A stretch of DNA of 64,000 bases from Amphiscolops sp. MND2022 (taxonomy: Eukaryota): assembly GCA_964187785.1 (NCBI GenBank), contig OZ076409.1:42038001-42102000 (forward strand), read 5' to 3'. Shown one piece after another: positions 48,067 to 64,000 of the stretch. The position numbers were made by a program, and so were the translations under genes. The notes beneath the pieces were generated by a model. That model made no database searches. It was not told the origin of the DNA and worked only from the letters and a program-made list of their open reading frames with translations. The stretch's first letter is position 1. Each line of letters opens with the position of its first letter.

Positions 48067-49221
48067 CTACCGATCACGACTACGATCGATTTTGTCTTTT
48101 GATTTAGCTTTTGTGATTAGGACGTATATGAATCGTTTTAGATTCATGTCCCAGTAAGGTATTGTATCCCCCTTGAGTGGTTTCTGTTTTGCGCAAGATT
48201 CTTTTAACAAGGGTATGTTCGTTAGGATTTCTTTCGAGAAGCCTTTGGCTGGCTTCAGATCTGCCGGGACAAAGATCATGATGGAGTCGGGTCTGCTGAG
48301 GATTGTAGTAGAATTTCCTCCTTCTATTCTGATGCAATCGTTCATATCTTGTGAAGGGATGGTGGAGTGCAACAGGAAACAGTCATTGTATTCTTCGTTT
48401 TCGTTTAGGATAGCGTAGGCGAGTTCCGTAGGGTTTCTAACTTGGTATTTTGGAATTTCTTGGTCTAATACGTCGAGCAGAGAGTATCCAATAGTTCCTT
48501 TTACTAGGGTGATTGTATGGTTTTTGTTATTTTCCATGACGATTGGCAAAGTCTTCTCAAATCTTGTACAAAGGACATTTATAAAATTTAGTCCTGTAGA
48601 GACTGCTTTTCTGTTGGGTAGGAACGTAGATCCGGGAGGAAAGGAGTTCTTGGGGTTTTCCGGTGCAAATTTGTAACATCTTGTCGTCTTTGGTTCGATA
48701 TACATTGAGTGAGGAATTCGGACTGAGAGTATTTGTGATACGTAGGGGTAACATTTGTTGAGTTGTAGACTGCCATAGCAGAAAGTATTTATAGGTCTTT
48801 TGAGTTCTATGCCAGGAAGATCAAAGTGTATTTTGTTAACTTGTTCTTGACAGAAGTTCATTCCAAGGAGGTTTTGGGTCTTCATCTCTGTTATCCAGAC
48901 TGTCAGTGGGAAGTTATGTTGTCCATCGGAATCGTAGTAGAGTTTGAGGGTGATGTATCCCATCATAGGGATGATCTGCCCAGAGTAGTTCCGTGTTGTG
49001 TTGTTACTTCTGCTGAGTTCGAGGTCTTGTTGAAATTGACAGAGTTCTCTAAAGGTCCTGTAGTTAATGATTGAAGATGTTGCCCCAGTGTCTAGTAGAA
49101 ATTCGATTTCTAAGCCACTATCTTTTTGTGAGTCTCCGGCAGCAAAATAATAAAGATTAAGACTAAATTTTAGTGGGGCAGTGCTGCTGTTACGGTTTTT
49201 CGGAGACCTTAATAGTTTAAA
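48067..49221 (-). CDS. pol: Element B pol, N-terminal part (protease, beta-rich linker, start of TARG1-like macrodomain), truncated at about 48085
   Basis: -1 frame open from the slippery site: FKLLRSP...IEFLLDTGATSSII (protease) ...NLLGMNF...DSIMIFVPADL...RFIYVLITK, then runs into unrelated AT-rich DNA. Confidence 0.88.
   Translation of the reverse strand, partial: FKLLRSPKNRNSSTAPLKFSLNLYYFAAGDSQKDSGLEIEFLLDTGATSSIINYRTFRELCQFQQDLELSRSNNTTRNYSGQIIPMMGYITLKLYYDSDGQHNFPLTVWITEMKTQNLLGMNFCQEQVNKIHFDLPGIELKRPINTFCYGSLQLNKCYPYVSQILSVRIPHSMYIEPKTTRCYKFAPENPKNSFPPGSTFLPNRKAVSTGLNFINVLCTRFEKTLPIVMENNKNHTITLVKGTIGYSLLDVLDQEIPKYQVRNPTELAYAILNENEEYNDCFLLHSTIPSQDMNDCIRIEGGNSTTILSRPDSIMIFVPADLKPAKGFSKEILTNIPLLKESCAKQKPLKGDTIPYWDMNLKRFIYVLITKAKSKDKIDRSRDR
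49081..49221 (-). promoter_or_regulatory. -1 frameshift signal of element B
   Basis: CCT TTA AAC TAT TAA at the gag end (T TTA AAC at 49221-49215); GTCTCCG/CGGAGAC stem and a second possible pairing TGCCCCA/TGGGGCA. Confidence 0.8.
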
Positions 49222-50663
49222 GGGCGAATATCGGCGACAGAGTTCACCGAGTAATCTGTTTCGAGAAACTGTACGGTGTTATGTCTTCCCATGTCGTTAG
49301 TTCTAGGGAACCTTTGTTCGTAAGTTTGAGTGGGGGTGTTTGGTCTTTCGTTTCTGTTTTGTGGTCTATTAAAGACTGAGTTATTCTTTGGTGGAAGAGG
49401 CTGTATGTTGCGGTTGAAGGAGTTAGGCTGGTCTCTGTTGAAGTTGAACGGAGATCTTGCTCTTTGGGGCCCAGGAGAAACACTTCTGGAATTGTTAGAA
49501 TTGTTTAGAAAAGGTCTTCTTCCTTCTTGTGAAAATCTTTGGTTACCAGGACTGAATCTTGTATTCATAGGTCGGCGTTCTGGGTTGAAATTTCTTCTTT
49601 GTGGTCTATCATATTGGTTCCGGGCAGGGTTTGACTGCATGGCTCCAGCAAGTGCTAGTTGATGTGCCACAGCCATATGTTTTCTGATTTCTGAATCGGG
49701 TAGTCTAGTTTGGAATCTAGAACCATGTCCAGGTCCAGTTCTTTTGTTGTAATCGTTGGTGAACGTTATTCGTCTCTCTGGGTTGGATTCATTTTGAACT
49801 TTCTTGATTTCTTCATCTCTCATCTTCTTTCTGCACCAGTTAGGCGTATGCCCATTTGTTCGGCAGTAGCTGCAAAACCTGGTGGCCATTCTACGTCCTG
49901 TTGCGTTCGGATCAACAGTTTTCTCTATTGCATTGATAGTGTTGTTCGTCTGTTCTTTGATTTGTAGCTTGATTCCTTTGATGTCTTCTCGCAATTCTTG
50001 GATGAGTGGGTCTGCGTGTGATTCTCCACCGGTGAGAGAGGTAGTTACTGTGTAAGAAAGGTCTTTGTTTATTACAGCTTGAGAGAACTGCTCCCAGGTT
50101 GCATTCGGATGATCCATTAAGTATTCGTGTGCCTTTTCCCTCAGTTTCGGGGGTCGAAGGCCTCTCAGTGAGTAGTCAATGCACCTCTGTCTTCTTTGTC
50201 TGTCTTGTGCTGCTCTTTCGGCGTCTCTATTGTTCTGTGCGACTCCGGCTAGATCATCTGGCCATCCTTTTCCGACTACTATTTTAATTCTGTGTAGGAA
50301 GTTCTTTATTTCTTCTCCATCTCGTCTGATGACGTGTTCGGCTTCCATTCTGTGTCTAAATTTGTTTCTGCCATCTGCGAATCGCGTTATGAACCTCTCT
50401 CTGATTTCTGCCCAAGTGTTAGCGTCTGTGATGCTGGTCTCGAACCACTCTGCTGCGGGTCCTCTTAATAGTGTAGCAAAATAGGATTTTCTTCTGAAGT
50501 TGTAGTCATCAAGTGCTGGTCCGTTGGCCGGGGTATCACCGTGAGAAAACCGGAACTTCTTTTCAATGAGCTGTATGAATTGTTCAGGATCTTGATCTGG
50601 GTCTGTTCCTGTGAATTGGTCTCGGCCTAGGTCTGGATAAGCCAAGTAATTTTGCGCAGCCAT
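49209..50663 (-). CDS. gag: Gag of element B, 484 aa
   Basis: FTGTDPDQDPEQFI...LLRGPAAEWF...TWAEIRERFITRF capsid-like region; CCHC knuckle CSYCRTNGHTPNWC; R/N/P-rich tail. Confidence 0.92.
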   Translation of the reverse strand: MAAQNYLAYPDLGRDQFTGTDPDQDPEQFIQLIEKKFRFSHGDTPANGPALDDYNFRRKSYFATLLRGPAAEWFETSITDANTWAEIRERFITRFADGRNKFRHRMEAEHVIRRDGEEIKNFLHRIKIVVGKGWPDDLAGVAQNNRDAERAAQDRQRRQRCIDYSLRGLRPPKLREKAHEYLMDHPNATWEQFSQAVINKDLSYTVTTSLTGGESHADPLIQELREDIKGIKLQIKEQTNNTINAIEKTVDPNATGRRMATRFCSYCRTNGHTPNWCRKKMRDEEIKKVQNESNPERRITFTNDYNKRTGPGHGSRFQTRLPDSEIRKHMAVAHQLALAGAMQSNPARNQYDRPQRRNFNPERRPMNTRFSPGNQRFSQEGRRPFLNNSNNSRSVSPGPQRARSPFNFNRDQPNSFNRNIQPLPPKNNSVFNRPQNRNERPNTPTQTYEQRFPRTNDMGRHNTVQFLETDYSVNSVADIRPLNY

Positions 50664-63999: not shown

Positions 64000-64000
64000 T

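Follow-up and report, generated by a model that had tools for sequence, protein, structure and literature searches.

A window of 64,000 nucleotides (nt) from Amphiscolops sp. MND2022 (GCA_964187785.1, contig OZ076409.1, positions 42,038,001-42,102,000, forward strand; assembly size 1.07 Gb) carries, in its part from 48067 to 64000, a Ty3/gypsy-type retroelement encoding an envelope glycoprotein (env) and a suite of accessory genes in addition to gag and pol. This part was analyzed together with L011, the 10 kb of contig past the window end, which was used for self-BLAST; positions are those of the window unless another locus is named. The long frames lie on the minus strand, save an antisense open reading frame (ORF) of 214 amino acids (aa). 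Read 5' to 3' on this strand, the stretch begins with the reverse transcriptase (RT), RNase H (RH) and integrase (IN) part of Pol, from 64000 to 60004 and cut by the window end, and continues with the cargo, env and a TRAF-like ORF. There follow a polypurine tract (PPT), a long terminal repeat (LTR) from 53191 to 51700, the primer-binding site (PBS), a leader, gag, and the protease (PR) with half of a macrodomain, ending at 48087 (Table 1).

The initial annotation of this DNA had described a single colinear unit of at least 16 kb at 48067-64000. Self-BLAST of the extended contig gave a different layout: the stretch 48086-53196 has a second occurrence, 99.8% identical across 5117 bp, at 64376-69490 in continued window numbering. 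The locus therefore comprises a full copy of 17,786 bp, running from 69485 to 51700 with its 3' 12.3 kb inside the window, and a second, tandem partial copy that consists of the first 3.6 kb only, shares the 3' LTR of the full copy and is broken off at 48086/48087, in the middle of the macrodomain. It follows from this tandem arrangement that PR and macrodomain (48067-49278) and RT (60004-64000) come from different copies, and the order of parts in the window is a circular permutation of the one first proposed. A genome LTR search found no third LTR beyond the partial copy. The parts themselves were all recovered with the sizes first given (128, 214 antisense, 73, 131, 114 and 715 aa, counted from the first ATG), as were the ATG-less frame of 200 aa and the MATH/TRAF frame. 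The extra genes and RNA structure occupy ~5.1 kb between pol and env and ~1.5 kb after env.

The genome contains many relatives of this unit, with 64 matches to env, 97 to the antisense ORF and 123 to MATH, far above chance. The copies compared were two more of the window copy's own (reference) subfamily, among them c3, and three of two diverged subfamilies (c11 and c4; c1b); their env is 100% identical to that of the window copy in the same subfamily, 74-75% in c11/c4 and 60% in c1b. Gag, PR-macrodomain-RT-RH-IN, env, the 200-aa frame and MATH lie between LTRs in all of them, and c11 and c4 also possess the 128-aa, antisense, 73-, 131- and 114-aa frames, in unchanged order. Across the subfamilies with saturated synonymous divergence, the arrangement is maintained except for the hairpin repeats and the three ORFs between these and the antisense ORF. 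The cargo belongs to the element. Full-length copies devoid of it, or internal halves derived from unrelated families, either of which the initial annotation had regarded as decisive against its proposal, were looked for and not encountered. Intact gag, pol and env occur in one LTR-bounded unit in several near-identical copies, the gag of the full copy at the window locus being split.

Table 1. Features of the retroelement in the window and in the adjoining contig segment L011 (pN and pS, proportions of nonsynonymous and synonymous differences, window copy versus c4/c11)
Feature	Position	Strand	Observations
Pol, RT-RH-IN part of full copy	60004..64000	-	frame continues into L011; total 1854 aa
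Macrodomain of full copy, whole	L011:186-611	-	TARG1/OARD1 4j5q 9.2e-9
128-aa ORF	59609..59995	-	ATG 10 nt after pol stop; homologous c11/c4 frame with ~50% aa identity
Antisense ORF, 214 aa	58805..59449	+	35 of the 38 best genome matches open
73-aa ORF	58293..58514	-	stop overlaps next ATG (TAATG); 68% aa identity in c11/c4
131-aa ORF	57898..58293	-	stop 2-8 nt past ATG(s) of next ORF (ATGTTTAA); pN 0.32 vs pS 0.76
114-aa ORF	57564..57908	-	pN 0.32 vs pS 0.76
Hairpin repeats, three tandem units	57060..57526	-	57060-57180, 57238-57359, 57405-57526; between 114-aa ORF and env
env, 715 aa	54839..56986	-	PF24664 3.4e-31; herpes simplex virus (HSV) gB 5.6e-11; BFVD chu-related 8.6e-24
ATG-less frame, 200 aa	54205..54807	-	opens at pyrimidine tract and TTTAG; acceptor-like AG at 54809-54808
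TRAF-like gene, 300 aa	53306..54208	-	coiled coil and TRAF-C/MATH; Pfam MATH_2 / TRAF-mep_MATH; TRAF5 4gjh 1.7e-7
PPT	53192..53204	-	AGGGGGGTGAG(C); abuts LTR
LTR, 1492 bp	51700..53191	-	TGTCGC...GCGACA; 3' LTR of full copy and 5' LTR of partial copy
PBS, 18 nt	51679..51696	-	complement of tRNA-Met(CAT) 3' end with CCA, same genome
Leader, 1015 nt	50664..51678	-	between PBS and gag
gag of partial copy, 484 aa	49209..50663	-	one CCHC knuckle; open frame and domain search
-1 frameshift site U_UUA_AAC	49131..49221	-	heptamer 49221 to 49215; 6-nt spacer including gag stop; 8-bp stem
PR (DTG) and N-terminal half of macrodomain, partial copy	48087..49278	-	element sequence stops at 48087

The structural hallmarks of a Ty3/gypsy element are present: direct LTRs with TG..CA ends, a short target-site duplication (TSD), a PBS after the 5' LTR and a PPT before the 3' LTR. 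The length of the LTR (~1.5 kb) was set by comparison with two other copies and its ends by comparison of the flanks. Extension of the contig, which the initial annotation had advised in order to obtain the far LTR and the TSD, did reach a second LTR and thereby the 17,786-bp unit; TSDs were read in c3, c11 and c4, the three copies with both flanks read, and are 4 bp long (TTCG, GTTT, GCAC). The PBS, TGGTGCGACCAGTGAGGC, lies 3 nt past the LTR and is perfectly complementary to the terminal 15 nt of tRNA-Met(CAT) plus CCA, a tRNA-Met gene being predicted at three of the four loci scanned. In all subfamilies the PPT directly adjoins the 3' LTR. The LTR contains a 39-47-nt repeat in triplicate at 52365-52493, and the c11 LTR has a separate repeat array; such LTR repeats may represent enhancer repeats of U3. 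The motif listing for the element also includes TATAAA and AATAAA.

In the full copy, a frameshift divides gag (L011 1499-2957, minus strand, beyond the window) into frames of 251 and 277 aa, whereas the gag of the partial copy is open. The gag frame ends in ...CCU UUA AAC UAU UAA with pol in the -1 frame, and the open PR frame itself reads from 49278 to 48067. Positions 49208-49201 pair with 49138-49131 to form the frameshift stem, whose arms GGUCUCCG...CGGAGACY enclose 62 nt. Slippery heptamer, spacing and stem are kept in all five copies compared, the most diverged included; both stem arms are coding, so that conservation of the stem is no independent proof. The 1854-aa Pol frame follows the order PR-RT-RH-IN, with the macrodomain inserted between PR and RT. 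It contains the Pfam families RVT_1, RT_RNaseH(_2), Integrase_H2C2, rve and SH3_Tf2-1, an RT motif YIDD and, according to Pfam, a single RNase H stretch. Its closest solved relative is the Ty3 Gag-Pol structure 7q5b (1.5e-57), followed by Ty3 RT, with caulimovirus and foamy virus ranking behind; the Ty3/gypsy assignment first made from the sequence is supported by this top match.

The env protein has the layout of a type I membrane protein, with a signal peptide or hydrophobic N-terminal leader, a single C-terminal transmembrane (TM) segment at about aa 603-637 and a tail of 78 aa. It contains 16 Cys and four N-glycosylation sequons (N-x-S/T), and a scan of the 715 aa found no R-x-K/R-R site. 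Pfam assigns it to PF24664, Monjiviricetes_fusion (3.4e-31), a family for which the literature search returned only an unrelated preprint. A large protein collection holds 220 homologues, 20 of which were used to build an AlphaFold model. With this model, all 38 Foldseek matches listed against the PDB are herpesvirus gB (best 5.6e-11; 106 matches at E<=0.001), and VIA, comparing residues ~60-314, places it near rabies virus G and HSV-1 gB (Z 7.6 each), Mokola G (6.9) and baculovirus GP64 (6.4), values all below 8 and within a range that VIA rates as middling. In BFVD the top matches are glycoproteins of chu-related, xinmo-, qin-related and crustacean negative-strand viruses (8.6e-24 to 6e-19), which rank ahead of rhabdovirus G and gB. 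Searches of env against the PDB by sequence or by profile returned nothing meaningful. The Pfam, Foldseek, VIA and BFVD matches support the initial proposal of a class III fusogen, with chuvirus-type glycoproteins as its nearest kin.

Between PR and RT, ~135 aa match structures of human OARD1/TARG1 by phmmer against the PDB (4j5q, 4j5r, 2eee, 2l8r and 2lgr, E ~1e-8, best 9.2e-9, query aa 381-457); the Pfam Macro model itself gives no match to the Pol macrodomain of this element. Among 1.84 billion protein representatives searched, 129 relatives were found at E<=0.001, of which 14 reach E<=1e-10; most are short proteins that stand alone, and Pfam Macro was found in 12 of the 16 relatives scanned. 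The top two, P0122 and P0123, align with this Pol on both flanks of the macrodomain (53% and 41% identity), and the PR-macrodomain-RT layout therefore exists in diverged relatives. The domain is 68% identical to that of c11/c4 despite saturated synonymous sites. In the alignment, all subfamilies keep the Lys of an 'ITK' motif, which by our own numbering we take to correspond to K84 of TARG1; we also take Asp125 to be the second catalytic residue of that enzyme. K84 is the catalytic lysine of TARG1, which reverses ADP-ribosylation of thymidine in single-stranded DNA (ssDNA) (PMC8501950). The glycine-rich loop reads IGCGLD in the relative P0124 and GCGLD in P0123, with canonical motifs in one PR-macrodomain-RT fragment; in the element it reads EASELE (reference copy and c3), EGKELE (c11 and c4) or IEDGLD (c1b). 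Three database proteins, P0204, P0208 and P0216, are gypsy-type Pol fragments with a Macro domain elsewhere in Pol, arranged as RT-RH-Macro, RT-RH-Macro-IN and RH-IN...Macro (far C-terminal), which suggests that retroelements may have recruited macrodomains repeatedly.

The last gene before the PPT encodes a protein with Pfam matches to MATH_2 (1.1e-11) and TRAF-mep_MATH (1.5e-10); the MATH match of c1b is stronger (7.8e-22). Its matches to solved structures are the TRAF domains of TRAF5, 4, 3, 2 and 1 (best 1.7e-7, 4gjh), with coiled-coil matches at aa 74-118. Pfam finds neither RING nor zf-TRAF in the 300-aa protein or in the upstream 200-aa frame. The protein is therefore TRAF-like, with a TRAF domain only, and not a canonical TRAF E3 ligase. 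The upstream frame is devoid of any Met in the reference copy, c3, c11 and c4 (four copies, two subfamilies). Both subfamilies keep the acceptor-like site at its start, as they do the overlap of its stop with the TRAF-like ATG (ATGA, 54208-54205). Because it starts at an acceptor-like site, this frame is most likely, with moderate confidence, a downstream exon behind a 3' splice site. A crude donor scan gave no decisive result, and no conserved donor for the acceptor at 54808 was found; a donor-like GAAGTAAGT in env (56791) was rejected as its partner, not being kept in c11/c4. A -1 frameshift joining the 200-aa and TRAF-like frames is less likely, a subfamily of 56% identity having TGA before the ATG.

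Many MATH matches in the genome fall in frames of 165 aa, among them most of ~20 further matches to MATH aa 228-325. Such frames were considered as host donor genes and rejected, the two examined being internally deleted derivatives of the element (L027 4465-7453, L028 1691-5010). These have ~3 kb in common with the family at 97-98% identity and retain parts of IN, of the 114-aa ORF and of env; in their 165-aa frame the beginning of the ATG-less frame is fused to the C-terminal half of MATH.

Across subfamilies, the 128-aa ORF starts 10-13 nt past the pol stop, and all four junctions of the 128-, 73-, 131- and 114-aa ORFs are kept. Stop/start overlaps of this kind are used for termination-reinitiation in several RNA viruses. 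No Pfam family was found at E<=0.1 for the small ORFs or for extra ORFs of c11 and c1b, save a chance-level SBF2 match, and Atlas gave no usable match for the 131-aa ORF. In c11/c4 an extra sense ORF of 190-229 aa lies between the antisense gene and the homologue of the 73-aa ORF (in c11, L017 1970-2656, plus strand); it too has no Pfam family.

Of the 97 genome matches to the antisense ORF, the best 38 are near full length and 35 of these are open; the identity classes are ~100, 65, 61 and 57%, with further, mostly open ones at 37-44%. In the alignment the protein begins with an acidic SDYYEESSTDEE, continues through a Ser/Ala-rich linker that is hypervariable, and ends in a conserved C-terminal domain, which AlphaFold2 predicts to be helical, the means of its confidence score (pLDDT) over 10-residue blocks being 62-91. 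The protein matches no Pfam family; its best Atlas value, 0.87, lies below Atlas's own threshold, and its best Foldseek E-value is 2.5. The Ser/Ala-rich N-terminal half (58626-59081) could not be aligned with c3 (L014/L015), although its flanks are 88-99% identical, and the protein as a whole is 60% identical to that of c3 against 97-100% for its neighbours; this N-terminal segment is hypervariable or recombinant.

The tandem hairpin repeats before env have units of 167-179 nt, each with a 122-nt core in which a hairpin of 7-8 bp, its loop 14 nt long, is accompanied by one of 8 bp and by one or two of 3-4 bp. The 601-nt repeat region folds at z = -2.6. With a covariance model of the three units, c11 and c4 each show two units (83-118 bits) at the corresponding place, directly upstream of env, and c1b shows none. 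When the seven units were aligned independently with MAFFT/RNAalifold, compensatory double changes appeared at 8 of 20 pairs, with invariant loops. The model-fitted alignment, which includes one weak match, has compensatory changes at 13 of 23 pairs; none of 500 shuffles reaches the observed score, and slid controls pair at 29-50%. Rfam at E<=1 returned no match on 48000-64000. Because the covariation persists in a family with saturated synonymous sites, there is strong evidence, as judged from these alignments, that the module is a selected RNA structure. Each unit starts with an acceptor-like YYYYAACAG motif, and candidate roles may include env translation by an internal ribosome entry site, splice regulation, export or a protein-binding site.

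Taken together, the locus probably contains a young, multi-copy, 17.8-kb retrovirus-like element of the Ty3/gypsy type with a chuvirus/gB-type class III env and a fixed accessory suite. Several points nevertheless weigh against this interpretation. The promoters, splice sites, antisense transcript and reinitiation events are all deduced from the sequence, and the tandem junction at 48086/48087 is known from the assembly alone. With a mean pLDDT of 54.4 the env model is of low overall quality, only residues 61-310 being confident, and its VIA scores are middling. The glycine loop and Asp of the macrodomain are altered in the reference lineage, which makes hydrolase activity doubtful, even with the aligned Lys kept. 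The same large protein collection that holds 220 env homologues has only 8 for the antisense protein and 12 for the TRAF-like protein, and a similarity search detected neither the 73-, 131- and 114-aa ORFs nor the 128-aa and antisense ORFs in c1b. The measures of selection carry a bias of their own, described below.

The competitor that survives best, though it appears unlikely, considers the copies as recent germline integrations of a still-circulating exogenous virus transmitted horizontally, in place of a long-resident element inherited vertically. The youth claimed in the initial annotation is confirmed by LTR pairs that are 99.0-99.9% identical, and this suits such a virus as well, as do the conservation of env, open in 42 of the 48 matches spanning its full length, and the many env copies that encode an identical protein. 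At least 28 full-length LTR matches form 14 pairs spaced by 16.1-16.3 kb, none being unpaired, and a related LTR type adds at least five more pairs and one unpaired LTR. These counts are lower bounds from the 40 of 452 candidates scored, and the resulting figure of at least 19 pairs to one unpaired copy among scored matches also goes in the direction of recent arrival. However, the coexistence in one genome of at least three deeply diverged subfamilies and of internally deleted derivatives fits long residence.

A second alternative, which we consider improbable, regards the element as an ordinary intracellular LTR retrotransposon whose extra frames, perhaps including env, are functionless passengers kept open by youth. 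Open frames inside one subfamily prove little, since common descent leaves most of its copies near-identical, and five frames have no family or fold match. Between subfamilies the situation differs: frames remain open, and their order and stop/start overlaps are kept although synonymous sites are saturated. Amino acid identity is 37-74%, the macrodomain and MATH persist in the subfamily with 60% env identity, and compensatory changes accompany the conservation of the non-coding hairpin module. For the window copy compared with c4/c11, pS amounts to 0.52-0.82, with most frames saturated, against much lower pN values: 0.14 for pol, 0.16 for gag, 0.18 for env, 0.21 for the 73-aa ORF, 0.32 for the 131- and 114-aa ORFs, 0.33 for the 128-aa region, 0.34 for the 200-aa frame (pS 0.75), 0.44 for MATH and 0.46 for the antisense ORF, with the reservation that pS is saturated and that protein-guided local alignment pushes pN below pS. 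As pN is biased downward, the weaker cases for selection therefore rest mainly on frame retention.

It is very improbable that the element belongs to another reverse-transcribing group, such as BEL/Pao with a chuvirus-like glycoprotein, Troyka or Odin/lokiretrovirus. It was with mosquito BEL/Pao elements that chuvirus-like glycoproteins were initially associated (PMC7642597, PMC13524379), and the Ty3/gypsy placement follows from best matches and Pfam families rather than from an RT tree. Nonetheless, Ty3 is the top solved relative and the Pfam families are typical of gypsy-type Pol. The TG..CA termini and 4-bp TSD, compared with CG..CG and 3 bp in Troyka (PMC12440569), exclude Troyka, and the single RNase H, in contrast to the dual RNase H described for Odin and retroviruses (PMC9040795), argues against Odin and lokiretroviruses. 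Least credible of all is the idea that the cargo is foreign to the element, as would follow from a pile-up of separate insertions, from two unrelated families or from a chimeric assembly: the window parts are indeed circularly permuted, one copy is truncated and its junction is an assembly product, but two same-subfamily and three diverged copies hold the parts between LTRs, the order is complete in c11/c4, c1b retains gag, a macrodomain-bearing Pol, env, the 200-aa frame and MATH, three copies have 4-bp TSDs and at least 14 LTR pairs lie 16.1-16.3 kb apart.

For the young Ty3/gypsy-type element that we favour, a scheme of expression can be proposed. Gag and Gag-Pol would very likely be translated from full-length RNA by -1 frameshifting. 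Subgenomic or spliced RNAs may well serve to express the distal genes, the 200-aa frame forming a downstream exon, and the small ORFs and the TRAF-like gene may well be translated by termination-reinitiation at TAATG, ATGTTTAA and ATGA. The antisense gene could conceivably be driven by an internal promoter, perhaps divergent with the 73-aa ORF, within 58515-58804. By analogy with Drosophila gypsy, env would promote cell-to-cell or soma-to-germline spread. The infectivity and the immune-modulating cargo put forward in the initial annotation are putative. The macrodomain would remove or bind ADP-ribose placed by host ADP-ribosyltransferases on element proteins or on ssDNA intermediates of reverse transcription. 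The RING-less TRAF protein might, by analogy, act as a decoy in TRAF-dependent signalling, and the hairpin repeats may constitute a cis-acting RNA element for env expression, RNA export or splicing balance.

A more far-reaching interpretation, which we put forward tentatively, is that of an animal virus lineage derived from Ty3/gypsy that has acquired a complex-retrovirus lifestyle independently of vertebrate Retroviridae, together with host-derived counter-defence genes, the macrodomain and the TRAF decoy. Such a lifestyle would combine subgenomic or spliced and antisense transcription, small genes coupled by reinitiation and a covarying RNA response module before env; the macrodomain would guard proteins or ssDNA from ADP-ribosylation and the TRAF decoy would blunt innate signalling. 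If this is true, the occurrence of Macro at three places in gypsy-like Pols would make ADP-ribosylation a widespread, unrecognised host defence against retroelements. If the macrodomain and TRAF-like proteins act on host defence, ADP-ribosylation and TRAF signalling would restrict animal retroelements outside the PIWI-interacting RNA system, and the element would offer a tractable, naturally active system for studying the passage from retrotransposon to complex virus.

The remainder of the window contains other elements and host genes. A second, conventional Ty3/gypsy element lies at 5290-11504 on the minus strand, with a gag frame of 471 aa that carries a CCHC knuckle and with a PR-RT-RH-IN frame of 1610 aa; it lacks a macrodomain, and 3' of Pol there is no env-sized frame. 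A DDE_1 (pogo-like) transposase fragment is found at 36361-37266 (plus strand), and a host gene for queuine tRNA-ribosyltransferase (Pfam TGT, 5.9e-88) contributes two exons, at 38758-39543 and 40818-41306 (minus strand). A G+C-richer block (0.40-0.46) with strong negative AT skew, at ~26000-32000 on the minus strand, resembles the element in composition; its frames of 131-262 aa match no Pfam family.

Among metazoan retroelements, this one belongs with the recently described 'errantivirus-like' ones that carry env. From most metazoan phyla, Chary and Hayashi (eLife 2026, PMC13524379) report Ty3/gypsy elements that are intact and multi-copy and whose env is of the F-type or the HSV/gB-type ('ancient errantiviruses'), and note chuvirus-like, gB-fold glycoproteins next to gypsy Pol genes. 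As gB-type Ty3/gypsy env is thus published, the core of our finding is therefore of an already known kind, and the premise of the initial annotation that env-bearing gypsy elements carry only a baculovirus F-type env is superseded. The present element has in common with these the gag-pol-env order, LTRs with a tRNA PBS, a class III env and multiple near-identical copies. It differs by its accessory suite: their study scored only GAG, POL and ENV frames, other ORF arrangements being stated as not sought, and its main text does not contain the terms 'macro', 'TRAF', 'accessory', 'antisense' or 'splic'. The 12-nt tRNA-Met PBS string and five env peptide motifs are absent from the first 400 characters of the cells of its supplement, a weak negative, and this supplement may list related elements. 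The possibly undescribed lineage proposed at the outset thus loses its novelty as to env type, and may keep it as to the accessory suite, which together with the RNA module was not found in the literature searched. The same search yielded nothing relevant by title on macrodomains in retrotransposons or MATH/TRAF in LTR retrotransposons. Env-bearing class III gypsy elements, described as gag-pol-env machines, can keep ~6.5 kb of extra functions over deep divergence.

Viral macrodomains are known in corona-, alpha- and hepeviruses. The one described here is like TARG1/OARD1 in its sequence match (9.2e-9) and in the Lys kept in 'ITK', and unlike it in its place inside a retroelement Pol between PR and RT and in its glycine loop and Asp, which are altered in this subfamily. 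ISKNV, the virus of infectious spleen and kidney necrosis, encodes a TRAF protein, ORF111L (PMC3352826), and so provides another case of a mobile or viral genome with a TRAF-domain protein; in the Amphiscolops element the carrier is a retroelement, and the protein consists of coiled coil and TRAF-C only and is known from sequence. Mosquito BEL/Pao elements with a Chuviridae-like glycoprotein (Dezordi et al. 2020, PMC7642597) similarly bear a chuvirus-type env inside an LTR retroelement (here PF24664 and BFVD), and are distinguished by their backbone, which is Ty3/gypsy-like in our case, and by the extra genes present in the latter.

Extra ORFs in gypsy-like elements have precedents. One of them is reportedly the CERV ORF of Caenorhabditis elegans Cer1 (PMC10309623). 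The Juno, Vesta and TelKA elements of bdelloid rotifers carry GDSL esterase, DEDDy exonuclease, dUTPase and TM proteins (PMC5408684); 'macro', 'TRAF' and 'MATH' are absent from that paper. The rotifer elements and Cer1 together serve as precedent for family-specific ORFs becoming fixed in gypsy-like elements; one such ORF is needed for genomic RNA export.

Complex retroviruses provide an organizational parallel, with the antisense HBZ of human T-lymphotropic virus, the internal promoter of foamy viruses and the lentiviral Rev and its response element. The accessory frames of the Amphiscolops element have no homology to retroviral accessory proteins, and its Pol is Ty3-like with a single RNase H. 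It nevertheless resembles these viruses in its accessory frames 3' of pol and env, its antisense gene, its structured RNA near env and an ATG-less downstream frame suggestive of a spliced exon.

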